From Candidatus Omnitrophota bacterium (GTDB taxonomy: Bacteria > Omnitrophota > Gorgyraeia > Zapsychrales > Zapsychraceae): a stretch of 64,000 nucleotides of DNA. Positions 2,536 to 43,828 of the stretch are shown here, one piece after another (positions within the stretch are counted from its first letter, which is position 1; each line of letters begins with the position of its first letter). The stretch is from positions 18,238 to 82,237 of the forward strand of contig JADFXT010000001.1 of the NCBI GenBank assembly GCA_015233405.1. Direction: 5' to 3'. Under the pieces are notes generated by a model, which saw only the letters and a list, made by a program, of their open reading frames with translations, was not told where the DNA came from and did no database searches. The position numbers and the translations under genes were made by a program.

Positions 2536-2647
2536 TTTTTGGTTTATAGATTTTAACGCTTTAAAAGGGAACGTTTTCCTGTTTCTACTAATACTAAGTG
2601 GCATTTTTGATAAAGATATTTTATACTTAATATAGAAGTAAAAAGTA

Positions 2648-2797
2648 GTGAACCGAAACGGCAAACCCATCGTAAGGTGGGGACGCAAAGTTAAAGGGTC
2701 CAAAAGGAATAGGACAGCCTGACTACCGAAGTCGCTGAATGAGTAAGAAATTTTAAGCCTATTCCTAATGATGTACGGGAATAGGCATTTTTTTTGG
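2648..2797 (+). promoter_or_regulatory. c-di-GMP-I (GEMM) riboswitch aptamer plus intrinsic-terminator expression platform
   Basis: Aptamer has GGCAAACC, P2 hairpin CCCAUC-GUAA-GGUGGG (GNRA loop), conserved GGGACGCAAAG, and 3' ACAGCCUGACUACCGAAG (compare Vc2 GGCAAACC...GGGACGCAAAGCC...UACCGAUGG). Terminator GCCTATTCC(2757-2765)/GGAATAGGC(2778-2786) plus T8; its 5' arm can alternatively pair with GGAATAGG (2706-2713) inside the aptamer. Confidence 0.75.
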
Positions 2798-2985: not shown

Positions 2986-5900
2986 ATGTTTAGAGGGCAA
3001 GGCACAACAAGAAGTAACATACTAAAGACTATGAGTCTTATAGTCCTCTTTATTTTTATCCCTCAGACTTTATTCGCTCAAATCACTCTTCCAACGCCCG
3101 GGACCATGGTCACGACCAGCGCGTCGTTTGTCCCGCCGATGCTCAAAGGGATGAAGGTTGATTTAAAACAGCCGTTTCAATTTGATTTTATTCTCGATAC
3201 CGGAAATTCTAATTTACAGGACGATGATCTAAAAGATGAATCCAATAAGCTCATCCGCTATTTTCTTTCGTCCTTGACCATCCCGGAAAAAGATTTGTGG
3301 GTCAACTTGTCTCCGTATGAGAAAAACCGTATTATTCCCGACGAGTTCGGCACAACGGAAATGGGCCGCGACTTATTGGCGCAGGATTATATCCTTAAAC
3401 AGATAACAGCTTCGCTCATGTATCCGGAAAACGCAACCGGCAAGGCGTTTTGGCAGAAGGTTTATAAAAAAGCCTATGACCTTTACGGCACGACCGATAT
3501 CCCGACGGACACGTTTAATAAGGTGTGGATCGTTCCGGATAAGGCTGTTGTGTATGAGAATCCGACTCCCAAATCCGGAGAGGCAACGGTATTTGTGGTC
3601 GAGGCGAAGTTGAAGGTGATGCTCGAGGAGGATTATTTTGCGACATCGAATACTGTAGGGGCGGGGTTTCCCCGCCATGAGGATAAAGGGCGCGGGAACC
3701 GCGCCCCTACGGCAATAATCAAAGAGGTCATTATTCCTATTTTGGAAAAAGAAGTCAATGAGGGCGCGAATTTCGCGCAACTGCGTCAGGTGTATTATTC
3801 GCTCATTCTTGCTAAGTGGTATAAGGATAGCCTCAAAGAAAGTATCTTAAATCGCAAATATTCCGACCAGAAAAAGGTTGATGGCGTTGACCTGGCCGGT
3901 AAAAAGGATAAACAAGAAATTTATGAGCAGTATCTTAAGGCGTTTAAGAAGGGCGCGTTTAATTACATCAAAGAGGAATACGATCCAACGACGCAGGCGC
4001 TCATACCCCGCAAATATTTCTCGGGCGGGGCGAATTTTAAAATGGAGAAGCCGATTGAAAAGACAAAATTTTTCCCGAGAGTCATGGGTAATGTGGTCGG
4101 AAAGTTAAAAGAAATCGCAGGTGGTTTTAAAAAATGGATTTTATCGCCGAGGCTCAAAGATGCAGCGATGGTGGTAGCAACCGTTGCAACATTAGTCGTG
4201 CATAATGGAGAAAAAAATGAAGAATTCGATCCTGGTGAGGCTGTAAGACCCGTCGCTGCGGTTGTCGATCAAGCAATGGCTGTAGCGGAAGGAGTTAAGG
4301 CAGCTAAGCCGAATGAAACAGCTTTAAGAGAGGGTTTCAAGTTTCCTTATCTAGGCAAAGCCCCACGGGGTTTTATTATGGGAGGCACCACTAGCAATAC
4401 TCCAAGCGAAAATACTAAAGTCAACAATGCCATGATGAATGTTAAAACAGCAGGAAGCCAAGTTCTAAATGTTTTAGGAAACTTTATTAATCCTGACTAT
4501 GTTCGGCAATTTATTTTCGTAGTGACGGGAAGTTTGTCACTTTTAAGTCCCCTGCCATATGATCCTGGTCCTGAGAAGGACTCAAAGAATTGGAACATGA
4601 AACCTGCTATTACAAGTGACCATGCCATGATGAGCGTTAAGTCGGCCATCGGTGTGCTGGCGATGATGTATATGCTTGCTGGATTGGCTATGCCATCATT
4701 CGCTAATACGCCGGGAAATTTGATTAACCCATCGAGTCTGACTGCGCAAGCGCCCCAAACACGTCAGGCCGCGCCGGTTTCTATTTCCATCGACCAGCTT
4801 AAGAATAAAAATGGCATGATATCGGTCAGGGTCATTCCTCATTCTGAGGTTTATCAAGAATATGAAAAAACACTTTTTGCCTTACAAAGCTGGGCTAGAG
4901 ATAATAATTATCAGGAAGTCCGTGATTTAGGGAATTATATTTTGTTCGTCAATAAAGAGGCCGGGATTTCCATCACATTTGAAACCCGCGAGGGCAATAG
5001 CGATAATCAGAATGCGAACCAACAATTGATCAGGCAGGAAGTCAGAGAATTTCAAACAAAAAATAATCAAGCAACGATTGTTTTAAGTGCCGATGGAACA
5101 ACTTCGGAAATATCAACTGCTGATAATCTTTATTTTGCTTCCGGAATGACGGAAAGCCCGGTTATTGTCATCCCTAATAATGTCGATAGCAAGGTCCTTG
5201 ATAAAATTCGAGCCGCGCATCCGAAGGCGACGATTCTTCAGGCGGATGGTGGCGTCCTGATGGATTTTCTTAAACTTCTTCCGTATATTTCTCAGAATGG
5301 CGCGTTAAGTACGAAAAACACTTCATTCTCCGTCGCTGATACATCCAAATCAGCAAATCCTATGAATGCCGGTACAACCGCAATCCTTTTGGCATTACTG
5401 GGCGGCGGTATTGGCGGAGGAATAAGATTTGTGGGAAGGTCCAAGACGCGGTCAAATAATTCGCAGAGTTTTAATGTCAATTTGAGCGGGAGCCCTTCAA
5501 CCAGTAATCCGGGCATAGCAAAGAAAGCACCGAGATATAATGAGAAAGGCGAAGAGATCATTGGTGACTTCGCCATGATGACGAATAATCAGACAACAAA
5601 AATCCCAGCCGCTACCAGCGCAGGAAGGCTCACGCACCTTCAGAAAAAAATGATTGATGCCCTGGCTAAACAAAGACCGGACAAAGGCCAAGAGGAACCC
5701 ATTTATATCGCCGATATCGGATTCGGAGGAATGTCGACCGTGTTTGATTTAGCAAAAGAACTTAGCAGCCAAGGTTTTAAGAATGTTATTTTCTACGGAA
5801 TGGATTACCGTGCTGAAGTTGTTAAAGGCGCGCAAGATTTTGTATCCAAGCAAGGAAACATCGACGGAATAAGCCGTTTTCAATTTGTTAACGGCAGTTT

Positions 5901-6684
5901 TGAAGCTCTTCAGGACAAGGGGCAGTTTGATCTTATCGTAACGTCGAATACCCTGATGTGGTATGACAATGGGACGGATGCGGTCCAGAAATATCGTAAA
6001 AACATGCAACAAGCCCTTAAAGAAAACGGTATGGCGATCGAAGCAACAGGCGGAGGGGAAAAATTTTCTATTGGATATGTTCAGTGGAATAAAAATAATG
6101 TTACTGAAAGAGGGATCATTGACCCCCAGGGGACAGTATCCAGGAGTAATGCTATGATTCAAGAAGAGAGTGTTGAATCAATACAAAAATCCATTGGGGA
6201 AATTTTTCCTATTTTAAAAGATAGCAATAATTTGTCGGCTATTGCTGCTGTTGTCAAAGAACTTCGCGGAAATAATGTCGAAACTCGTCCAGATAAGCTT
6301 GTTAAGTGGATGAAAACAGCCCTATCTTTAGATTTAAACTGTTTAGAAAGCGAACTAGAGTCTAAGTTAGGGATCCAGATGAATGACGTTAACCTTTTTA
6401 AACTTCTCTATGCCGGGCATACAACAGAAGAACGCCTCAACAAAGACAACGCTCCTTTAGCCAATCCTGGTGGTATTGATTTTAATCCGAACCGTCTAGA
6501 GCTTGATAAACAAGGCGCGCATAATGATTTTGAAATGCCGACCAATCCCGCGGACATGGAAAACATCCAGATCAATGGCCTTGTGCCGGTTATTATGAAA
6601 ATCTCGCCGGTCACGAACCTGCCGCTTCTTCTTGGAGCGAATCAAAATAGCGAAACAACCAGTCCGTTACAAGCAGGTTCTTAG
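2986..6684 (+). CDS. Large secreted protein, paralog 1 (signal peptide; N-domain shared with 14975-19825; internal signal-peptide-like segment; putative class I SAM-methyltransferase-like module; conserved C-terminal GGIDxNP domain)
   Basis: RBS AGAGGGGG before ATG. N-region (from ~aa 60 to ~aa 400) aligns with 14975-19825 (DLWVNL..GRDLLAQDY..KVWIVP.KAVVYENP); the first ~60 aa are not shared. MTase-like IADIGFGGMS...FDLIVTSNTLMW. C-term PGGIDFNPNRLELDKQG. Confidence 0.7.
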   Translation: MFRGQGTTRSNILKTMSLIVLFIFIPQTLFAQITLPTPGTMVTTSASFVPPMLKGMKVDLKQPFQFDFILDTGNSNLQDDDLKDESNKLIRYFLSSLTIPEKDLWVNLSPYEKNRIIPDEFGTTEMGRDLLAQDYILKQITASLMYPENATGKAFWQKVYKKAYDLYGTTDIPTDTFNKVWIVPDKAVVYENPTPKSGEATVFVVEAKLKVMLEEDYFATSNTVGAGFPRHEDKGRGNRAPTAIIKEVIIPILEKEVNEGANFAQLRQVYYSLILAKWYKDSLKESILNRKYSDQKKVDGVDLAGKKDKQEIYEQYLKAFKKGAFNYIKEEYDPTTQALIPRKYFSGGANFKMEKPIEKTKFFPRVMGNVVGKLKEIAGGFKKWILSPRLKDAAMVVATVATLVVHNGEKNEEFDPGEAVRPVAAVVDQAMAVAEGVKAAKPNETALREGFKFPYLGKAPRGFIMGGTTSNTPSENTKVNNAMMNVKTAGSQVLNVLGNFINPDYVRQFIFVVTGSLSLLSPLPYDPGPEKDSKNWNMKPAITSDHAMMSVKSAIGVLAMMYMLAGLAMPSFANTPGNLINPSSLTAQAPQTRQAAPVSISIDQLKNKNGMISVRVIPHSEVYQEYEKTLFALQSWARDNNYQEVRDLGNYILFVNKEAGISITFETREGNSDNQNANQQLIRQEVREFQTKNNQATIVLSADGTTSEISTADNLYFASGMTESPVIVIPNNVDSKVLDKIRAAHPKATILQADGGVLMDFLKLLPYISQNGALSTKNTSFSVADTSKSANPMNAGTTAILLALLGGGIGGGIRFVGRSKTRSNNSQSFNVNLSGSPSTSNPGIAKKAPRYNEKGEEIIGDFAMMTNNQTTKIPAATSAGRLTHLQKKMIDALAKQRPDKGQEEPIYIADIGFGGMSTVFDLAKELSSQGFKNVIFYGMDYRAEVVKGAQDFVSKQGNIDGISRFQFVNGSFEALQDKGQFDLIVTSNTLMWYDNGTDAVQKYRKNMQQALKENGMAIEATGGGEKFSIGYVQWNKNNVTERGIIDPQGTVSRSNAMIQEESVESIQKSIGEIFPILKDSNNLSAIAAVVKELRGNNVETRPDKLVKWMKTALSLDLNCLESELESKLGIQMNDVNLFKLLYAGHTTEERLNKDNAPLANPGGIDFNPNRLELDKQGAHNDFEMPTNPADMENIQINGLVPVIMKISPVTNLPLLLGANQNSETTSPLQAGS
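3655..3710 (+). repeat. GC-rich nested palindromic element inserted in frame within CDS
   Basis: GTAGGGGC[GCGGGGTTTCCCCGC]CATGAGGATAAA[GGGCGCGGGAACCGCGCCC]CTAC; sits at the site homologous to the MITE insertion in the paralog. Confidence 0.6.
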
Positions 6685-9361: not shown

Positions 9362-12190
9362 ATGGATTATCAAAAAACATTAAATCTGCCTCAAACCGAT
9401 TTTTCGATGAAGGCCGGGCTCGTCGTCAAAGAGCCGTCCTATCTGAAAAAATGGGAGGACGAGGGGCTTTATGCCAAGATCCGCGCGAAATCGCAGGGGA
9501 AAAAAACATTTTTCCTCCACGACGGGCCGCCGTACGCTAACGGCAATATTCACATCGGCCACGCGTTAAATAAAATATTAAAAGATATTATCGTCAAGTC
9601 CCGCACCATGCAGGGCTTTGACGCGCTTTATATTCCCGGCTGGGATTGCCATGGGCTTCCTATCGAGCATCAGCTGTTTAAGGAAATGGGCAAGGACAAA
9701 GCCGAAGTCGATTGCGCGCAATTCCGCAAACAAGCTCATGACTACGCGATGAAATATGTCGGGATTCAGCGTGAGCAGTTTAAACGCTTGGGCGTTTTTG
9801 GCGAATGGGATAAACCATATCTGACGCTCGACACGGAATATGAATATTGGATCCTAAAATCTTTAAGTGAGCTCACTCAAAAAGGGTATGTCTATCGGGG
9901 TGTAAAACCGGTCAATTGGTGTTTTGATTGTGAAACGGCCTTGGCTGAGGCGGAGGTGGAATATGAAGACCACACTTCTCCGTCGGTGTATGTCAAATTT
10001 GAAGTGAACAATTCTGCAATTTTAGGCCTGCCCAAAAATAAAAAAGTTTTTCTTTTGGTCTGGACGACGACGCCGTGGACGCTGTTGGCCAACGTCGCGG
10101 TCGCGGCACACCCGGATTTTCATTATGTGGCGGTCGAAAAAAATGACGAGATTTTTATCCTCGAGGAAAATATTGCAATTAAACTTTTGTCGCAGACGTA
10201 CGAAGAGCATCTTCATAGTCTTATCAGCCCCGTCACAGGCAGTTATTTAACGTCGTTACGTTATACGCACCCTTTTGGGAAATTAAAGGATTGTCCCGTC
10301 GTGACGGCGGATTATGTAACCAAAGACGAAGGAACGGGCTTGGTCCATACCGCACCCGGCCACGGCCAGGAAGATTATCAGACAGGTGTGCGTTGTAAAC
10401 TTCCTGTTTTGATGCCCGTCAATGACCGCGGCGTTTTTACCGTTGAAGGAGCGCCTTTTGAAGGCAAACATGTCCTTAAGGCTAACGCAGAAATAATTCA
10501 GAATTTGAAAGACCGCGGGCTTTTGTTTGATACCAAAGAAATTGTCCATTCCTATCCGCATTGCTGGCGCTGTAAGAAACCCGTCATTTTCCGCGCGACC
10601 CAGCAATGGTTCTTAAAGGTCGATCATAAAAATTTACGCGGGCGCCTCGTCGACATTGTGAAAAGCAGCATTCAGTGGATTCCCGCTGCCGGCCAGGAAC
10701 GCATGCTGGGGATGATCAAAACCCGGCCGGATTGGTGCTTGTCCCGTCAACGATATTGGGGCGTGCCGATTCCTGCGCTTGAATGCAAAGGCTGCAATAA
10801 TAATCATAAACTTTTTATCGAAGTGATCGACCATTTTGCGGAAACCGTCCGTAAAAATGGGACCAATGTTTGGTTTGAGAAAGACCTTAAAGATCTTCTG
10901 CCGAAAGGGTTTAAGTGTCCTGACTGCGGTGGAAACCAATTTGAAAAGACCAAAGATATTCTCGACGTGTGGTTCGATTCCGGTGTGAGCCATCAGGCGG
11001 TTGTTAAAGGCCGGCTTAAGATGTCTCTGCCGGTCGACCTTTATCTGGAAGGCTCCGACCAGCATCGCGGCTGGTTCCAATCTTCGTTGATCCCCGGCGT
11101 TTGCATCGAAAATAAGGCGCCGTTTAAAGCGGTCTTAACGCACGGGTTTGTCGTGGACGGACAGGGACGTAAAATGTCGAAATCGTTGGGTAATGTCATT
11201 TCGCCTTTGGATATTATGAAAAATAGCGGCGCGGACATTCTGCGTTTGTGGGTCGCGTCCAGCTCCTATCATGATGACATCCGGATGTCTCCTGAAAATC
11301 TGGAACGTTTAAGCGATGCCTACCGCAAAATTCGTAATACGTTTCGGTTTATTTTAGGGAATTTAAACGGATTTAATCCTGATACGGATGTGGTTGATTA
11401 TCAAGACCTTTTGGCCCTGGACAAATGGGCGCTATGCCGTTTGTCGACGGTCATGAGCGAAATTTATAAGGACTATGCCGAGTATGAGTTCGCGAAACTC
11501 TATAAGGAGCTCTATACTTTTTGTAACGAAGACCTCTCCAGTTTTTATCTTGACATTTTAAAAGACAGGTTATATACTTCATCACCAATTTCCAGAGAGC
11601 GGAAATCTGCGCAAACAGTTCTTTTTCATATCCTCAATTATTTGGTCAGAGTTTTAGCGCCTTTGGTCACGTTCACGGCTGAAGAGCTTTTCTTTAATAT
11701 GCCGAAGAACAAAGAGTTGGCGCAGTGTTCCAGTGTTCATCTGCTGGAATGGCTTAAAGTTCCGGATGCCTGGAAAGAGGAAGCGGTCCTCGCGCAATTT
11801 GAACGGTTGGTTCATTTAAGGCCGCACATCTTAAAAGCGTTGGAAGATAAAAGACGCGATGGACAGATCGGCAGTTCTCTGGAGGCGAAAGTCATTCTGG
11901 AAAGTGCAAGTCAAAAAGATTTGGAGTATTTAAAAGGATTTGAACGCGCGCTAGCGTCAATATTTATTGTTTCTCAAGTCGAGCTTAAAAGCGTTGCTGA
12001 AGTTACCCAAGGGTTAAGCGAGGAATTTGCGAAAACCCAGGTGAAAATAGAGAAAGCTGACGGACAAAAGTGCCCGCGCTGTTGGAATTATAAAACAGAT
12101 ATCGGGCAGGATTTAGAACATCAAACCCTATGTGCCCGTTGTGTGGCCGCCGTAAAGGAGAGTTTTAATGCCTCAAAAGACAATGGATAA
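9362..12190 (+). CDS. ileS: Isoleucine--tRNA ligase
   Basis: HIGH ([12 protein letters not shown]) and KMSKS (KMSKSLGN) motifs; C-terminal Zn finger CPRCW..CARC; 942 aa. Confidence 0.95.
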
Positions 12191-36519: not shown

Positions 36520-38304
36520 GTGGGGAAATTCATAAAAATCATAGATGAAAAGACTTTCCATCCCATGGCTTCCTTAAAAGACCGTCTACAACAGATACTC
36601 CTTCAGCATAAACTTGTTTCGCCGGAAAATTTGGACAAGGCGTTAAAACAGCAGGAACAGGAAGGCGGCGAACTTAGTAAGATCCTTATTAAGTTGAACC
36701 TTATCGACGAAGAAACTTTGATCCCGGTCCTTTCCGAGGCCATGGAAGTCCCGCTGATTCACATCTCACGGCTTCATATTGACCCAGAAGTCGTCAAGAT
36801 TGTTCCTCAAGATGTTGCGCAGAAATATCAGGTGATCCCTGTTTCCCTTTTAGGCGATCATTTGACCGTGGCGATGGCAGATCCTTTAAATATTTTTGCC
36901 GTGGATAATCTTAAAGCGTTAACAGGTTATACGATCATTCCGGTGATTGGCAGGGAAGAGGAGATCCGTTTGGCCATTAGCCGGCATTATGGTATTGAGG
37001 ATACAGGAACAGCGACGGGGAAATTCAAGGAAATCATCAAAGATATTCAGGACACAGGAGATATTGAACTCGTCAAGGAAGCCGGCCATCATGACCCTAA
37101 GGCCGTCGAGGAACTTGCAGACGATGCCCCAATTATCAAATTAACGGATACCATTATTCAACAAGCCGCATTTGCCAAGGCCAGCGATGTGTTTATTGAG
37201 CCGATGGAAAAGACCCTGCGGATCCGTTACAGAATCGACGGGATGATCCGAGAGATCGACCGGATGGCCAAATTCCTGCACGCGCCGATCATTTCCCGCA
37301 TCAAGGTCATTTCCAATTTAGATATTTCAGAACACCGCCTTCCTCAAGATGGACGGTTTAAAACGATCATCTCCGGGAAAATCGAGGTGGATTTTCGTGT
37401 TTCTGTTTTGCCGACGCCGTTTGGGGAAAAAATTGTTTTACGCGTCTTAGACCAGCAGGGCACGGTGCTGGATGTGGATAACTTGGGGTTTGACCCGGAA
37501 TCCTTACGCCGGCTCAAGGAGTGTTCTTTTCGGCCGCATGGGATGATTCTTACCTGTGGCCCGACGGGAAGCGGGAAGACGACGACGCTGTATTCTATCC
37601 TTAAATATATTGATTCACCCGAGAAAAATATCGTGACCGTCGAAGACCCGGTGGAATATCAATTGAAAGGGGCCAATCAGGTCAATGTCCGTCCGGCGAT
37701 CGGGTTGACCTTTCCGGCGTGTTTGAGGTCCATTTTACGTCAGGATCCCAATGTCATTTTGATCGGAGAAATCCGGGATACGGAAACATTGGATATTGCC
37801 GTTAAGGCTGCGCTAACCGGGCATCTGGTTTTAAGTTCGCTGCATACGACCACGGCCGCAGGGTCTGTGGTGCGTATGATGAACATGGGCATTGAACCTT
37901 TTTTGATATGCTCGTCGGTGTTGGCGGTTGTGGCTCAGCGGCTTTTACGCCGGCTTTGTCCGCATTGCAAAGAATACTACACGCTTTCTAAGGAGATTGT
38001 CGCCAAAGTGGGGTTGGCAAAAATTGTTTCGCAGGATACGGTGGTGTTATTTAGAGCTAAAGGATGCCCGCAATGTTTTAATACCGGATATCGAGGGCGC
38101 GTTGGGATCACAGAGATCATGGTCTTGTCTATTCGTCTTAAAGAATTAATTCTTCAGAAAGTTGGAGAAGGCAAGATCAAACACGTCGCCCGTCAGGAAG
38201 GAATGAAAACCATGCGGGAGGACGGTTTAAAAAAGGCGATGGAAGGGTTGACGTCGTTAGAGGAAGTTCTCCGTGTCACCGCTCCCGACGAAGAGGAATC
38301 ATGA
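36520..38304 (+). CDS. PilB/GspE-family ATPase 2 with MshEN-type N-domain
   Basis: GPTGSGKTTT; CPHC..CPQC; N-term RLQQILLQHKLVSPENLDKALKQQ. Confidence 0.9.
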   Translation: MGKFIKIIDEKTFHPMASLKDRLQQILLQHKLVSPENLDKALKQQEQEGGELSKILIKLNLIDEETLIPVLSEAMEVPLIHISRLHIDPEVVKIVPQDVAQKYQVIPVSLLGDHLTVAMADPLNIFAVDNLKALTGYTIIPVIGREEEIRLAISRHYGIEDTGTATGKFKEIIKDIQDTGDIELVKEAGHHDPKAVEELADDAPIIKLTDTIIQQAAFAKASDVFIEPMEKTLRIRYRIDGMIREIDRMAKFLHAPIISRIKVISNLDISEHRLPQDGRFKTIISGKIEVDFRVSVLPTPFGEKIVLRVLDQQGTVLDVDNLGFDPESLRRLKECSFRPHGMILTCGPTGSGKTTTLYSILKYIDSPEKNIVTVEDPVEYQLKGANQVNVRPAIGLTFPACLRSILRQDPNVILIGEIRDTETLDIAVKAALTGHLVLSSLHTTTAAGSVVRMMNMGIEPFLICSSVLAVVAQRLLRRLCPHCKEYYTLSKEIVAKVGLAKIVSQDTVVLFRAKGCPQCFNTGYRGRVGITEIMVLSIRLKELILQKVGEGKIKHVARQEGMKTMREDGLKKAMEGLTSLEEVLRVTAPDEEES

Positions 38305-38307
38305 TTT

Positions 38308-40029
38308 ATGGCTAAAACCATTAAAGAAAAAGTTTTAGAAGACCTGATCATTTCCCGAAAGATCAGCAAAAGCGAACTTGAATTCGCCAAAGAGATACAG
38401 TACAACAAGGGAATTAGTTTGGACAAGGCCTTGATAGATCAGGGGCTGATTCAAGAGGAAGAACTGTTGTCTTTGCTTGTTCAGGAATTGAATGTTCCTT
38501 TTGTGAACCTTAGTAAATATAAAATCGACCCTGCCTTAAAAGAAATTATCCCGCAGAAAGTCGCTTATCAATATAGAATTGTTCCTCTTTCCGTCCTGGG
38601 AAACGTGATGACGATCGCGGTTTCCGATCCGCTTAATGTTTTTGTCGTCGATGATTTGAAGAATATTACGGGAAAACAAATTGATATTGTGATGAGCCTG
38701 GAAAAAGAGATTGTAAAGGCCATGGAGAATTATTATGGCCTGCAGTCAACCGCGACGGTCACAGAGGTCAGCCAAGATATCCAAAAAGACATCGCCAGTG
38801 ACGCTTTTGAGATCGTCATGGAGGGAGAAGTTCCGGAACATATGGCGAGCGTCATCGATGAAAGCGAGAAGGCGCCAATTATCCGGATGGTCAATCTCGT
38901 TATTGAAGAAGCAATTCGTCAAAGGGCATCGGACATTCATATTGAGCCGGCGATGGATGTCGTGCGAGTCCGTTATCGCATTGACGGGGCTCTGCGGGAA
39001 ATCTTGGAGATCCCGAAAGAAAATCAGAACGCCGTGATCGTGCGTATCAAAATCATGTCGCGGCTTGATATTACGGCCAATCAAGTGCCTCAAGACGGGC
39101 GGTTTAAGTTAAAGATCTCACATAAAGAAATTGATTTTCGGGTTTCTCTTCTTCCGACGACATTTGGCCAGAAAGTCGTTATGCGCGTCTTAGACAAACG
39201 GAATCTTTCGTCCGGATTAAGCGGCCTTGGGTTAAATGAACGGTCTTTGGCGATCCTGCGCGAAGGGATCCATAAGCCGTTTGGCATGATTCTGGTCACT
39301 GGTCCGACGGGAAGCGGAAAATCGACAACATTATATTCCATTATTAATGAACTGAATACGGTTGACCGGAACATTATTACTATTGAAGATCCGGTGGAAT
39401 ATTTGATCGAAGGCTTGACGCAGATTCAGACCCGTTCAGAGATCGGCTTGACCTTTGCGGAAGGATTGCGGGCGGTTTTACGGCAAAGTCCGGATGTGGT
39501 GATGGTCGGAGAAATCCGGGACAATGAGACCGCCGATATCGCGATCAAAGCCTCTTTAACGGGGCAGATTGTTTTATCCACGCTTCACACTAATGATGCG
39601 GCCGGCGCGTTGACCCGTTTGGTCGATATGGGCGTAGAGCCTTTCCTCGTCGGGTCAAGTTTGATTCTGGTGACCGCTCAACGGCTTTGCCGAAAAGTTT
39701 GCCCTCAGTGCAAAGAGCCTGTTGCCATTGACGAAAACACATTAAAACGTCTTAAATACGATCTTGCTCCTAAGGTTGTTTTTTATCATGGCAAAGGTTG
39801 CGATTTATGCCATCAAACCGGTTATTTTGGTAGGACGAGTATTACGGAAATTTTAGAAATTGACGACAATATCCGTTATATGCTTTTGTCCGGAGACTCT
39901 TCCGATAAGATCAAGGAATATGCGCTTAAGAAAAAAGGCATGACAACCCTTTGGGCTGATGCTATGGATAAATGTGTTTCAGGGATCATTTCTTTAGAAG
40001 AAGTCTTACGCGTGACAACAAGCGATTAA
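38308..40029 (+). CDS. PilB/GspE-family ATPase 3 with T2SSE_N-type N-domain
   Basis: GPTGSGKSTT; CPQC..CDLC; starts 4 bp after the previous gene. Confidence 0.9.
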   Translation: MAKTIKEKVLEDLIISRKISKSELEFAKEIQYNKGISLDKALIDQGLIQEEELLSLLVQELNVPFVNLSKYKIDPALKEIIPQKVAYQYRIVPLSVLGNVMTIAVSDPLNVFVVDDLKNITGKQIDIVMSLEKEIVKAMENYYGLQSTATVTEVSQDIQKDIASDAFEIVMEGEVPEHMASVIDESEKAPIIRMVNLVIEEAIRQRASDIHIEPAMDVVRVRYRIDGALREILEIPKENQNAVIVRIKIMSRLDITANQVPQDGRFKLKISHKEIDFRVSLLPTTFGQKVVMRVLDKRNLSSGLSGLGLNERSLAILREGIHKPFGMILVTGPTGSGKSTTLYSIINELNTVDRNIITIEDPVEYLIEGLTQIQTRSEIGLTFAEGLRAVLRQSPDVVMVGEIRDNETADIAIKASLTGQIVLSTLHTNDAAGALTRLVDMGVEPFLVGSSLILVTAQRLCRKVCPQCKEPVAIDENTLKRLKYDLAPKVVFYHGKGCDLCHQTGYFGRTSITEILEIDDNIRYMLLSGDSSDKIKEYALKKKGMTTLWADAMDKCVSGIISLEEVLRVTTSD

Positions 40030-40123
40030 TGGTAAAAATTCTTTTTCGTATTTATTTATTTCCAAGAAAGGTTTTAGTGTTAAAATAAAAATAATACTAT
40101 TAACTTTTTAAGAGATATAGCCT

Positions 40124-40585
40124 ATGTTAGCTCAAAAAGAGTATTGTGTTGCCAAAAAAGAACTTTTAGGCCAGATTCTCATTAACCGGGATTTGATCAC
40201 CTCTGAACAGCTTAGGTATGCGTTAAAGCTGCAAAAGAAAGAACGGGGCTATTTGGGCGACGTCCTCGTTAAATATGGATTTGTCGACGAGAAAGATGTG
40301 ATGGTTGCGCTTGTGGTCCAATGTAATTTTGCCTATATTGCGATTGACCGGTATGATATTGACCCGAAATTGACAGAGCTTGTTCCCCGAGAAATGGCTT
40401 GCCGGGCACATGTCGTGCCTTTGGAGCAGGTCGGAGATGTGTTAAGTATCGTCATGGCCAATCCGCTCGATTTTTCTATTAAAGAAGAATTGCAGAAATT
40501 AACCAAATGCCACATCGCGTCTTTTATCGCCACGCGGGTTGAGATCGATAACGCGATCAATCGATGTTATCCTAAAAGGATTTAA
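40124..40585 (+). CDS. Stand-alone T2SSE_N / MshEN-domain protein 2
   Basis: LLGQILINRDLITSEQLRYALKLQ and YLGDVLVKYGFVDEKDVMVALVVQ; paralog of 36008-36466. Confidence 0.7.
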   Translation: MLAQKEYCVAKKELLGQILINRDLITSEQLRYALKLQKKERGYLGDVLVKYGFVDEKDVMVALVVQCNFAYIAIDRYDIDPKLTELVPREMACRAHVVPLEQVGDVLSIVMANPLDFSIKEELQKLTKCHIASFIATRVEIDNAINRCYPKRI

Positions 40586-40591
40586 ATTCCT

Positions 40592-41800
40592 ATGGCAACG
40601 TTCAAATATACTGTTAAAGATGAAAATTCTAAAACGATTTCCGGAAAGTTTTCTGCGGACAACCGGGAAGCTGTCATTGAGGAACTTAGAAAAAGGAAAT
40701 ACATCATTATTTCCCTTGCGGAAACCAAAGAGGAAGGGCCGAAGAGGGCGCCTTTTCAAAAAGATAAAGTCAACCCCGATGAGATTGTTCTATTTGCTCG
40801 CCAATTAGCAACGATGATTGACGCCGGAATTCCTATCCTGCAGGCTTTGGATGCGTTAGAGCAGCAGACAACCAATGCCTTTTTTAAGGCGGTCTTAGGG
40901 ACGATGAAAACAGATATTGAACACGGTAGCAGCCTCTCGGCGGCATTTGCCAAACATCCGAAGGTCTTTAACGTTTTGTTTATTAATATGGTCAAAGTCG
41001 GAGAAACAGGGGGCGTTTTAAGCCAGGTATTGGACCGCGTTTCCAGTTATATGGAAAAGACCTTGAAGCTCCAGCGAAAAGTTAAAGCGGCGTTAACTTA
41101 TCCGATCGTAGTTGTCTCGATGGCCATCATCATTACCGTTGGTTTACTGGTGAAGGTTGTCCCGACCTTTGCCAAAATTTATGATTCGTTAAATCAAAAA
41201 CTGCCGGCCATGACCCTTTTGTTGATTACGATCAGTAATTTATTAAAACAGCAACTTCCTTTAATCCTTGTAATTTTAATTGTCACCGCTGTTTTTCTTT
41301 CTCGATGGCACAAATCAGAAAAAGGGGCGCGGGTGATTGACGGTGCGATATTAAAGATGCCGATCTTTGGGGACCTTTTACGCAAGGTGGCCATCAGCCG
41401 TTTTAGCCGCACCTTGGCAACTCTGATTCAAAGTGGCGTGCCTATTTTGGAAGCGCTGAATGTCGTCCAAAAAACGATCGGAAATAAAATTTTGGAAGAT
41501 GTCATTGAAGATGTTAAAGTGAATGTCAAAGAAGGGGAAAGTATCGCGGCCCCACTGGAACGCAGTAAGGTCTTTCCCGCGATGGTCACGCGCATGATTA
41601 GCGTCGGAGAAAAATCCGGAAAAATGGAGACGATGCTTCTGAAGGTTTCCGAATTTTATGATGACCAGGTCGATGCTGCTGTGGACGGATTGACCAGCAT
41701 CATCGAGCCTTTGATCATCGGAGTTTTAGGTATTATTATTGGTTTTATTGTCATTGCGTTATTTATGCCAATCTTGGCAATCACACAATTAATCAAATAG
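40592..41800 (+). CDS. PilC/GspF-family platform protein 2
   Basis: Collinear with 21958-23172. Confidence 0.9.
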   Translation: MATFKYTVKDENSKTISGKFSADNREAVIEELRKRKYIIISLAETKEEGPKRAPFQKDKVNPDEIVLFARQLATMIDAGIPILQALDALEQQTTNAFFKAVLGTMKTDIEHGSSLSAAFAKHPKVFNVLFINMVKVGETGGVLSQVLDRVSSYMEKTLKLQRKVKAALTYPIVVVSMAIIITVGLLVKVVPTFAKIYDSLNQKLPAMTLLLITISNLLKQQLPLILVILIVTAVFLSRWHKSEKGARVIDGAILKMPIFGDLLRKVAISRFSRTLATLIQSGVPILEALNVVQKTIGNKILEDVIEDVKVNVKEGESIAAPLERSKVFPAMVTRMISVGEKSGKMETMLLKVSEFYDDQVDAAVDGLTSIIEPLIIGVLGIIIGFIVIALFMPILAITQLIK

Positions 41801-41808
41801 GATCTTCT

Positions 41809-42816
41809 ATGAACGGGCAAAAAAATAAATTTTCTAGACTTGGGAAGTTTTTGGCAGTGGCAGCAGCATGTTTTATTTCGAATGTTTGTCTGGCCCAAAC
41901 AGTATCCGTCAGGGTTTATGATCAAAATAACCCGGATAACCCAACAGGGCCAACCACACAAAATATTAACGCTCTTGAGCAAAAGAATGATTATCTCGTC
42001 AGACAGATCCATGAATTAGAAAAAAGCACAACTGATATGGACAGGCAGATTAAGGCCTTGGACCAGGATTTAAAAGATGTTCGGGAAGCTGTGATCGATC
42101 AAAAAGCCAGGAATCAGGCGATGGCACAGCAAAAAATAACGGAAGAAGCTTTGTTGAAAGAAAAACGGGTCCGGGTCCAATTGGAAGGCGTGCAGGTCAG
42201 CAAAGAAATCATGCTCTTGGAAAAAGAACTGTTGTCCCGAGAGAAACAGGAGCTGTCGCTGACAAATAATATTAAGATCCTCACGCAGGAAATAGGCGTC
42301 TTAAAGAATCAGATGATTGCAATGGAACACCAGAATAAAAATGCGGAAAAGAAGGTGTTACGAGAAAGCATCCTCGTCAGCGAGAAGAAAATAACTCAAT
42401 TGAATCGTGAACTCGAGCAGGTTAAGAAAAAGTATCGAGCCCCGACAGAAACCTTGGAGAAATTAAAAGCGGACAATTTTTTGCTAAAGCAGCAAGCGGA
42501 AATTATCACGAAAGATTTAAAAGATTCTCTTAAAAATAAAGATGTTCGGCAAAAAGAATATGAACAAAAAGAACAAGAGAACCAAAAACAAGTTTTAAAG
42601 CTTACGGAAGACATTGAGCAATTGAAAACAAAAAAGAAAAATTTGGAAGAAGTCCTTGCGCAGGCGGAGCTTAAGTTAAAAGAAAAGAAAAAGGATTTGA
42701 TAAATCCGGAAGAAGGCCAAAAAGAGATTGAAAGACTGCAGAAGACCTTAGACGCTATTAACGACGAGAATTTGAAATTGGAAGAACAGAAAAATGTTTA
42801 CTCTTCCCAGAATTAA
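41809..42816 (+). CDS. Secreted long coiled-coil protein
   Basis: Signal peptide FLAVAAACFISNVCLAQ; ~300 aa K/E/Q-rich heptad sequence. Confidence 0.45.
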   Translation: MNGQKNKFSRLGKFLAVAAACFISNVCLAQTVSVRVYDQNNPDNPTGPTTQNINALEQKNDYLVRQIHELEKSTTDMDRQIKALDQDLKDVREAVIDQKARNQAMAQQKITEEALLKEKRVRVQLEGVQVSKEIMLLEKELLSREKQELSLTNNIKILTQEIGVLKNQMIAMEHQNKNAEKKVLRESILVSEKKITQLNRELEQVKKKYRAPTETLEKLKADNFLLKQQAEIITKDLKDSLKNKDVRQKEYEQKEQENQKQVLKLTEDIEQLKTKKKNLEEVLAQAELKLKEKKKDLINPEEGQKEIERLQKTLDAINDENLKLEEQKNVYSSQN

Positions 42817-42944
42817 ACTGGGCGAGTTGTTTTAAAGCTGCCTTTAGTAAAAAATCCTCAGATGATTCCCGTTGATGCTTGCCCGGTTTGCAAATTATTT
42901 TTTAATGTGCTACACTTAAATTGAAAGCTGAAATTTGCTTTTGT

Positions 42945-43035
42945 GAAAAAAGGTAAACCATTCGAAAGGATGGGACACAAAACTAAAGGGCCCTCAAGCC
43001 GTTAAAAGCTCGGGCAGCCAGTTGCCACATAAGGA
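42945..43035 (+). promoter_or_regulatory. GEMM-like (c-di-GMP-I/cyclic-dinucleotide riboswitch-like) element with variant core
   Basis: GGUAAACC + P2 CCAUUC-GAAA-GGAUGG (identical to Vc2 P2) + GGGACACAAAAC in place of GGGACGCAAAGC; 3' GGGCAGCCAGUUGCC. Confidence 0.45.
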
Positions 43036-43088
43036 ACAAGAGCCGTGGAAAGAATTCGGAGCTTTTCTCTTTCCTGGAGTTATTGATC

Positions 43089-43117
43089 CCGTTCCCGTTT
43101 GTGGAATGGGTTTTTTA
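43089..43117 (+). terminator. Intrinsic terminator (candidate expression platform of the GEMM-like element)
   Basis: CCCGTTCC-CGTTTGT-GGAATGGG + TTTTTT. Confidence 0.5.
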
Positions 43118-43163
43118 TTTTATGGGAAAAGGTTAAGCGTATTTTGAAAAAACAATATATAAA

Positions 43164-43193
43164 TTGACAAAGAAAGGAGGTGGGTGTTACAAT
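43164..43193 (+). promoter_or_regulatory. Strong candidate sigma70 promoter for the pilin gene at 43409
   Basis: TTGACA-N17/18-TACAAT. Confidence 0.55.
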
Positions 43194-43408
43194 CAGTTAA
43201 GATTTAAAGGTTTCTTAAAACCTTGAGCCATAAGAATTTAGGTCAAATTGGAAAAGGGTTGAAAAGGGAAAAAAAGAAATAAAACGTCATTATATTATTT
43301 ATTATTTTATTCCTCTTGATTTTCCTGATCTCTCCTTCCTCCTGAAATGACTCGTAAATTCCTTCTGGCTCGAAAAACCCCTTATTAAAGGGAAGAGGAG
43401 GAATTACT

Positions 43409-43828
43409 ATGAGAATCAGAAATCAGAAAGGTTTTACGCTCGTCGAAATTATGATCGTCGTTGCGATCATAGCCCTGTTGGCCGCTATTGCAATCCCGAA
43501 CTTGTTAAGAGCCAAGATGTCCGCTAATGAAGCATTAGCACAGAGCACGCTTCGCGCTATGTCAACGGCAGCAGAAACTTTTGCCTCCGCACATAACGGT
43601 ACTTATCCTACAGCTGGTCAGTTAACAACCGGCGGGCCAAAGTATATTGAAGTCGATTATTGCGATGCTGGTGGAAATCCTCGTTCTGGATATAATTATA
43701 CTTGTCCGACCCAGACGACTACCGGGTATAGTTTTGTTGCTACGCCGGCGTCTGCATCGACGGGTTCAAAGACATTCACCATTGTTACAGGTGGCGTATT
43801 GTCAAACGTGGATTTTGTAGCTCAATAA
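43409..43828 (+). CDS. Type IV pilin / GspG-like pseudopilin
   Basis: QKGFTLVEIMIVVAIIALLAAIAIPNLLRAKMSANEA; RBS GAGGAGG. Confidence 0.85.
   Translation: MRIRNQKGFTLVEIMIVVAIIALLAAIAIPNLLRAKMSANEALAQSTLRAMSTAAETFASAHNGTYPTAGQLTTGGPKYIEVDYCDAGGNPRSGYNYTCPTQTTTGYSFVATPASASTGSKTFTIVTGGVLSNVDFVAQ

Follow-up and report, generated by a model that had tools for sequence, protein, structure and literature searches.

Does a riboswitch for cyclic di-GMP (c-di-GMP) control the major pilin gene of an uncultured bacterium, and how could it do so when a promoter follows directly on its terminator? This question is raised by a stretch of 64,000 nucleotides (nt) from Candidatus Omnitrophota, which we call the window (contig JADFXT010000001.1 of assembly GCA_015233405.1, positions 18,238 to 82,237 of the forward strand). 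In the window the gap between a coiled-coil open reading frame (ORF; end at 42816) and a type IV pilin ORF contains a c-di-GMP-I (GEMM-I) aptamer, an intrinsic terminator and a promoter. A further promoter, P1, precedes the aptamer, giving the order promoter P1, aptamer, terminator, promoter P2 and pilin gene (Table 1). The contact positions of the aptamer are intact. From these features we infer active promoters, ligand binding, an antiterminator and a direction of the switch. On balance we lean towards a c-di-GMP-I riboswitch unit with its own promoter, which would exert termination control of the OFF type before the pilin gene.

Table 1. Features of the riboswitch region and of the second aptamer copy of the window. 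Equivalent positions are numbered after Vc2.
Feature	Position in window	Strand	Basis and details
Putative promoter P1	42887-42916	+	Aligned with near-consensus promoter of relatives; -35 TTTGCA 42887-42892 (or TTGCAA 42888-42893), N18, TG 42908-42909, -10 TACACT 42911-42916; predicted start ~42923
c-di-GMP-I (GEMM-I) aptamer	42942-43029	+	RF01051; GGUAAACCAUUCGAAAGGAUGGGACACAAAAC
Aptamer helix P1	42942-42945 with 43026-43029	+	Rfam alignment
G20 equivalent	42952		Unpaired G preceding the first pair; via consensus
Equivalents of pairs 21-46 and 22-45	G42953-C42978, U42954-A42977		Via consensus
Aptamer first hairpin (helix P2)	42958-42963 / GAAA loop 42964-42967 / 42968-42973	+	
C44 equivalent	42976		Via consensus
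A47 equivalent	42979		Via consensus
Base of aptamer second hairpin	42981-42984 with 43020-43023	+	
C92 equivalent	43025		Precedes 3' strand of helix P1; via consensus
Linker between aptamer and terminator	43030-43087	+	58 nt
Intrinsic terminator	43088-43116	+	Pattern scan; hairpin CCCGTTCC-N7-GGAATGGG with one G.U pair 43088-43110, T6 43111-43116
Putative promoter P2 of pilin gene	43164-43193	+	Pattern scan, 11 of 12 positions plus TG; -35 TTGACA 43164-43169, 18-nt spacer, TG 43185-43186 (extended -10), -10 TACAAT 43188-43193
Pilin 5' leader	43200-43408	+	~210 nt from predicted start of promoter P2
Type IV (major-type) pilin gene	43409-43828	+	139 amino acids (aa), N-terminus MRIRNQKGFTLVEIMIVVAIIALLAAIAIPNLLRAK; Pfam N_methyl 3.6e-10
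Promoter of second aptamer copy	2598-2627		Same kind as promoter P1
Second GEMM-I aptamer	2651-2731		RF03167, 62.3 bits
Terminator of second aptamer copy	2757-2797		GCCUAUUCC...GGAAUAGGC-U8

The covariance model RF01051 matches the aptamer over its whole length (model positions 1-87 of 87) with 65.0 bits against a gathering score of 35 and an E-value of 1.8e-10, and only class I c-di-GMP models match this region. The preliminary description, made from the letters of the window, had thus rightly recognized a GEMM-I element before the pilin gene. For comparison we retrieved 80 loci with the PilC protein of this locus (40592-41800). Almost all of them are from metagenome-assembled genomes (MAGs) of Candidatus Omnitrophota, at 42-75% identity, and since these relatives share their phylogeny the counts across loci given here are not independent of each other. 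To the 80 loci we applied a covariance model of our own, R1, which was built from nine aptamers with the structure set by hand from Rfam; RNAalifold on the nine aptamers had given a wrong fold. The window aptamer reaches 94.9 bits with R1, the highest score of all copies in the lineage. In the resulting alignment of 55 distinct sequences, which was fitted to the model so that the pairing and covariation figures depend on it, 98.3% of the cells are paired and 10 of 18 aptamer pairs have two-sided changes as compared to 3.2 in shuffled alignments.

It has been shown that in Vc2 the ligand is contacted by G20, A47 and C92, next to an interhelical pair (PMC4744006; PMC6140456). By our mapping of the Vc2 numbering via the Rfam consensus, the equivalents of these three nucleotides and of C44 are all present in the window and invariant across the relatives, as is G43017 (AGC G), which together with C42976, the C44 equivalent, corresponds to the interhelical C44-G83 pair. 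The preliminary description had nevertheless pointed to two G-to-A departures from the ACGCAAAGC consensus, placed them in the ligand-contacting stretch and suggested an altered cyclic-dinucleotide specificity (cGAMP, c-di-AMP) or a decaying copy. Both departures fall into paired columns of the Rfam model and the pair is preserved in both cases. The first, GGU...ACA for GGC...ACG, replaces C22-G45 with U42954-A42977, and the second, AAAACU...AGUU for AAAGCY...RGYU, replaces G50·U with A42982-U43022. Both changes are frequent in the lineage. Of the 55 distinct sequences, 46 carry U-A as the 22-45 pair and 6 carry C-G, with which U-A covaries; for the position-50 pair the counts are 38 with G·U, 8 with A-U and 5 with G-C. 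At position 20, where the cGAMP-type GEMM-Ib aptamers have an adenine (PMC6140456), the window and all relatives have a G. The variant family RF03167 (c-di-GMP-I-GGC) also scores with 57.9 bits, which might be taken in favour of another specificity, but this is under its gathering score of 59, and the G that distinguishes the variant from the parent class with its A47 (model consensus GACGCGAA) aligns to A42979. Because both changes keep their pairs and the contact positions are intact, the reading of an altered core is contradicted by the alignment; neither another specificity nor decay has a basis in the sequence, and we regard both as very improbable. The element is almost certainly a canonical c-di-GMP aptamer, for which binding is predicted. 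The first hairpin had also been described as identical to that of Vc2. The 3' arm of helix P2 is GAGUGG in Vc2 and not GGAUGG, and the identical part would then comprise the 5' arm and the loop, a GNRA-type tetraloop, only.

Full-length aptamers occur in 50 copies in 47 of the 80 PilC loci, all of them on the pilC strand and about 1-1.5 kb downstream of pilC; many of the loci with no aptamer match end too early to judge its presence. A gene for a GFTLVE pilin follows 47 of the copies at a distance of about 150-460 nt. The 47 loci have a common order of a strong promoter, the aptamer, a terminator, usually a second promoter, a leader of 130-215 nt and the major pilin gene. Where the pilin gene is duplicated (L040 and L036), there is one aptamer per gene copy. 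The pilin of the window itself has thousands of homologues in the Omnitrophota, the best with 99% identity.

Upstream of the aptamer, promoter P1, a feature absent from the preliminary description, aligns with the promoter TTGACA-N16-18-(TG)-TATACT of the relatives, whose near-consensus form is N17-TGnTATACT. In 46 of 52 aptamer copies it matches at least 10 of 12 positions and ends 17-45 nt before the GG(Y)AAA core. We consider the aptamer unit as self-contained because such a near-consensus and precisely placed promoter is found in 46 of 52 copies, including the second copy of the window at 2651. The function of promoter P1 remains a prediction from the alignment. It had been proposed before that the element acts on read-through from the upstream pilC and coiled-coil genes. 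That gating of transcripts from the pilB-pilC-coiled-coil operon is the main role of the element would agree with the common strand of the genes, with a terminator-like hairpin at the end of the coiled-coil ORF that is weak and has a poor T run (42806-42822), and with the sub-consensus promoter P1 in the window. With a conserved promoter of its own before the aptamer, however, read-through from upstream could add to the transcription of the unit and is not required, and we regard this explanation as quite improbable.

The terminator, which with its T6 and its G.U pair had been noticed already, reads CCCGUUCC / loop CGUUUGU / GGAAUGGG as RNA, followed by U6. An intrinsic terminator follows the aptamer, at a distance of 11-58 nt, in every one of the 47 copies that have a pilin gene nearby. 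The linker of the window is longer than the 11-45 nt of the relatives, and a search for conserved sequence among the relatives in the region of the linker gave none. Terminator stems normally drift in sequence; here the stem sequence is conserved and in the relatives usually reads CCUAUUC...GAAUAGG, followed by U6-U8. In the window the 5' arm of the terminator, CCCGUUC (43088-43094), is complementary to the 3' arm of helix P2, GGAUGGG (42968-42974), with a duplex energy of -10.2 to -11.6 kcal/mol, and in about 30 of 47 loci this arm of helix P2 is the best upstream partner of the terminator arm. If the nascent RNA is folded only as far as the terminator loop, its minimum free energy (MFE) structure has lost the first hairpin in favour of the antiterminator in 24 out of 44 loci, the window included, whereas with shuffled arms this is seen in 8.0 +/- 1.8 loci and in 12 at maximum. 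The 7-bp register of the antiterminator is paired in 93.8% of the cells compared with 20-70% for slid registers.

We propose the following mechanism. Promoter P1 would start an RNA that folds into the aptamer and then reaches the intrinsic terminator. Without c-di-GMP the 5' arm of the terminator would pair with the 3' arm of helix P2, forming an antiterminator, and the transcripts from promoter P1 would continue through promoter P2 and the leader of about 210 nt into the major pilin gene. Binding of c-di-GMP would lock this hairpin in the aptamer, and the terminator would then form and an RNA of about 190 nt be released. Such an OFF switch would subtract the contribution of promoter P1 to pilin transcription. 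Promoter P2 would provide a baseline independent of the riboswitch, to which, in the simplest and additive reading, the read-through from promoter P1 is added when c-di-GMP is low. A cis-acting control of termination is probable in our view. It is favoured, though not decisively, because the unit is strictly paired with the gene, is duplicated together with the pilin and in some copies lacks promoter P2. The OFF direction, which is derived from the folding model, is a somewhat better than even expectation. In Clostridioides difficile the functional class I c-di-GMP riboswitches are all termination OFF switches (PMC6366702).

Several observations weigh against this mechanism. Promoter P1 of the window matches 9 of 12 positions plus TG and is weaker than that of the relatives. 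The antiterminator helix contains no pair with a two-sided change, and here the shuffle control equals the observation; the complementarity between terminator and aptamer could reflect shared ancestry. Duplexes within the same locus are only slightly more stable than those across loci (-11.14 vs -10.70 kcal/mol, permutation p 0.012), but the sequences compared are related and not independent. The truncated fold leaves the first hairpin intact in 17 of 44 loci. Since the full RNA at equilibrium favours the first hairpin together with the terminator, only a kinetic switch could work. In C. difficile the control of pilA1 by c-di-GMP has the opposite sign to the OFF control of a pilin gene proposed here. 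Finally, the pilin gene needs no read-through, because the strong promoter P2 stands right after the terminator, an arrangement that suits a stand-alone RNA equally well. We thus infer the antiterminator helix with these reservations and from predicted folds.

Promoter P2 had been reported before as a near-consensus site, which it is, but its spacer has 18 nt and not 17. Of 47 relatives, 34 have an equivalent promoter, TTGACA-N16-18-TGnTAGAAT, in most cases 128-180 nt upstream of the pilin ATG; in the window this distance is 215 nt. This second promoter is one of the arguments for a stand-alone small RNA of about 190 nt which binds c-di-GMP, always ends at 43116 and serves as a buffer or sponge or acts in trans, while the pilin is transcribed from promoter P2 only. 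The conservation of a dedicated near-consensus promoter and of a strong terminator with U6-U8 and the missing covariation in the antiterminator point in the same direction. There is also a precedent in merRNA, a c-di-GMP riboswitch RNA for which storage of the ligand in a predatory bacterium has been proposed (PMC3627812), and Omnitrophota have been proposed to be predators or parasites relying on type IVa pili (PMC10066038). On the other hand, merRNA has no conserved downstream ORF, whereas the unit described here lies directly before the pilin gene in 47 copies and is duplicated with it. In about a quarter of the loci, and likewise for the second aptamer copy of the window, there is no second promoter, and the genes there would need read-through. 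Moreover, the complementarity of the terminator arm to the aptamer is far above that of shuffled arms and would not be required by a constitutive terminator. We therefore judge the stand-alone RNA less likely than control in cis and on the whole unlikely.

The close tandem arrangement of the promoters allows for another explanation, in which read-through from promoter P1 occludes promoter P2, so that termination in the presence of c-di-GMP relieves the occlusion and raises pilin expression. The distance from terminator to promoter P2 is 53 nt in the window and 100-240 nt in some loci, which is not in favour of such an interference, but in at least 13 loci the -35 box of promoter P2 begins only 15-21 nt past the start of the terminator T run. 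The net sign would fit the common rule that c-di-GMP promotes pili (PMC6366702), and it would fit the MshEN-domain PilB ATPases encoded in the operon. Each read-through transcript carries, however, the pilin gene with an open Shine-Dalgarno (SD) sequence, and the occlusion would have to exceed this gain. We consider transcriptional interference rather improbable. That the unit is either a c-di-GMP-gated interference device on promoter P2 or a merRNA-like RNA storing c-di-GMP beside the pilin gene is, as a combined proposition, also unlikely.

Our preferred interpretation, termination control in cis, is supported by the second GEMM-I aptamer of the window, at 2651-2731. This copy follows an unrelated gene for a sensor kinase and lies upstream of an ORF (2986-6684) encoding 1232 aa with a signal-peptide-like N-terminus. 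Rfam assigns it to RF03167 despite an A at the distinctive G of that model. The 5' arm of its CCUAUUCC terminator is perfectly paired with GGAAUAGG in the second hairpin of the aptamer (-14.2 kcal/mol). Between this terminator and the 1232-aa ORF no second promoter was detected, and because of this the ORF needs read-through. The folding suggests that this copy follows the same switch logic as the copy before the pilin gene.

We also analyzed the pilin leader. Its predicted fold is a long imperfect hairpin (approximately 43225-43370) with a core at 43250-43342, in which a purine-rich arm (approximately 43250-43282) is paired with a CU-rich arm including the tract TTCCTCCT; the conserved motif ACGTCATTAT (43284-43293) is situated near the apex. 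The CU tract and its complement AGGAGGAA, which is the SD sequence AGGAGG(AA), had been described before as an anti-SD pairing. Both sequences exist, but at 43336-43343 instead of 43325-43332 and at 43396-43403 instead of 43394-43401, respectively. The pairing itself is not borne out by the folds, since in the MFE and the centroid structures the CU tract pairs with the upstream purine tract in the long hairpin and the SD is open; the read-through isoform from promoter P1 folds likewise. In the window the probability of the SD being unpaired is 0.64 as compared to 0.09 when the upstream part is shuffled. Among 22 relatives the accessibility of the SD is lower than in the control in about 10 and higher in 12. 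An exact complement of 8 nt is unlikely to occur by chance in a leader of 200 nt; about 2.4 chance copies are expected in both strands of the 64-kb window. A switchable state of the leader in which the SD is sequestered, different from the predicted one, is therefore conceivable. No consensus structure of the leader was obtained with RNAalifold on a MAFFT alignment, and an Rfam scan of both strands of the leader found no known family, only sub-threshold matches to plant microRNA hairpins. The pilin leaders share an A(A/C)CGNNATTAT motif that lies between a purine-rich tract on its 5' side and a CU-rich tract on its 3' side, and in addition a YGGCTCNAA motif some 30 nt upstream of the ATG.

Within the spacer of promoter P2 there is an SD-like sequence, AAAGGAGGTG (43173-43182 in the window), which we find in the spacers of at least 15 of 47 loci (L002, L004, L005, L006, L008, L015, L017, L022, L035, L038, L054, L072, L076 and others) compared to about 0.6 expected by chance. 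It has no start codon at a usable distance downstream and does not pair with the CU tract in the folds. As a possible anti-anti-SD in the long transcripts from promoter P1 it was rejected, the fold of 43118-43425 retaining the leader hairpin and the open SD. In the loci with the shortest distance between T run and -35 box (L044, L078, L040:5004, L036:5619, L027, L047, L004, L056, L034, L043, L049, L021 and L079) the T tract falls at the location that an UP element would occupy.

In the upstream operon (36520-40585) lie genes for two PilB-type ATPases that both contain an MshEN domain, and for a protein of 153 aa (40124-40585) which is essentially an MshEN domain alone. MshEN domains are known receptors of c-di-GMP. 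The locus may thus sense c-di-GMP through its proteins as well as through its RNA.

With Vc2 (RF01051) the window aptamer shares the architecture of two hairpins, the GNRA loop, the contacts G20, A47 and C92 and the interhelical position C44, and as in other GEMM-I elements there is a link to pilus genes, which was noted in the first description of GEMM (PMC1950547). It differs from Vc2 in its 22-45 pair, which is U-A, in its position-50 pair, which is A-U, and in its host, a member of an uncultured phylum. In the usual ON design of GEMM the terminator overlaps the 3' hairpin, which applies to 78 of 322 instances (PMC1950547), whereas the terminator of the window stands apart from the aptamer as a hairpin of its own, with a 5' arm matching the 3' arm of the first hairpin. 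The succession of a class I aptamer, an intrinsic terminator and a long leader is also found in Cd1 (Cdi-1-3) of C. difficile and in other class I OFF switches; for Cd1 it has been shown that c-di-GMP raises termination and leaves a short terminated RNA (PMC6366702). Cd1 controls flagellar genes and not a pilin, and the OFF direction in the window is a prediction. We know of no second promoter after the terminator of Cd1. Cdi-2-4 of C. difficile resembles the window in that a c-di-GMP riboswitch and a terminator immediately precede the major pilin gene, pilA1 (PMC6366702), but its aptamer belongs to class II and it is an ON switch, while the window has class I and the opposite predicted sign. 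The merRNA of Bdellovibrio shares the c-di-GMP-I aptamer, the promoter of its own, the terminator and the host-dependent lifestyle (PMC3627812). It is, however, confined to Bdellovibrio and is not followed by a conserved gene, whereas the unit described here is always adjacent to a gene, the pilin gene following in 47 copies, and has a terminator complementary to the aptamer. Bc1 of Bacillus thuringiensis, finally, also combines a class I aptamer with an extended complex region before the gene, but has two terminators and translational control where the window has one terminator and then a promoter.

The Omnitrophota are uncultured, mostly ultra-small bacteria with a presumed life on other cells, and one of the tools proposed for their attachment to hosts is the type IVa pilus; the main survey of their genomes mentions neither c-di-GMP nor riboswitches (PMC10066038). 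Our literature search found no paper linking Omnitrophota with c-di-GMP or riboswitches. We find a class I c-di-GMP riboswitch before the major pilin gene in most of the sampled pilus loci. Because the riboswitch precedes the pilin gene and PilB ATPases with MshEN domains are encoded in the same operons, the data suggest that c-di-GMP controls the production of pili in Omnitrophota at the level of both RNA and protein. If the interference or the storage explanation were true, the levels of the second messenger would be tied to host attachment in these nanobacteria. Used as sensors or in reporter constructs, the riboswitch elements also offer a handle on organisms that resist cultivation. The class of the aptamer and its link to pili are ordinary. 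Modestly new are the phylum of the host, the linkage to the major pilin across this phylum, the separate terminator mimicking the first hairpin and the order promoter, aptamer, terminator, promoter. The layout and the mimicking terminator extend the known range of GEMM-I expression platforms a little and do not introduce a new principle.

Some minor observations concern the sample and the aptamer copies. Several loci with an Omnitrophota-type operon (L012, L013, L025, L027, L028 and others) are from MAGs labelled 'uncultured Planctomycetales', and for L030 the label of the MAG is Lysobacterales; wrongly labelled bins or contaminating contigs are the probable reason. For the coiled-coil protein (41809-42816) a scan of the genome collection gave no relatives, and exact-sequence look-ups of the window pilin and of its 99% relative, P0001, gave no record. 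Two small ORFs overlapping the aptamer and the terminator (43022-43147 on the plus strand, 41 aa, and 42858-42980 on the minus strand, 40 aa) were dismissed as having no support. Weak matches upstream of pilin genes consist of the 5' part and the first hairpin of the aptamer only, e.g., CATGAAAAAGGTAAACTATTCGTAAGAATAGGACCC..., with the second hairpin missing (L033:8354-8405; L037:9211-9257 and 9879-9925; L070:12860-12924; L022:8932-9007), and may represent relics of truncated aptamers or a small motif in its own right. Other aptamers are as long as 125-160 nt, owing to large insertions that either follow the first hairpin or lie in the loop of the second (L065:9969-10127, L010:7737-7863, L072:4254-4378, L027:8823-8970, and further ones in L043, L049, L021, L008 and L035), and all of these retain the core positions.

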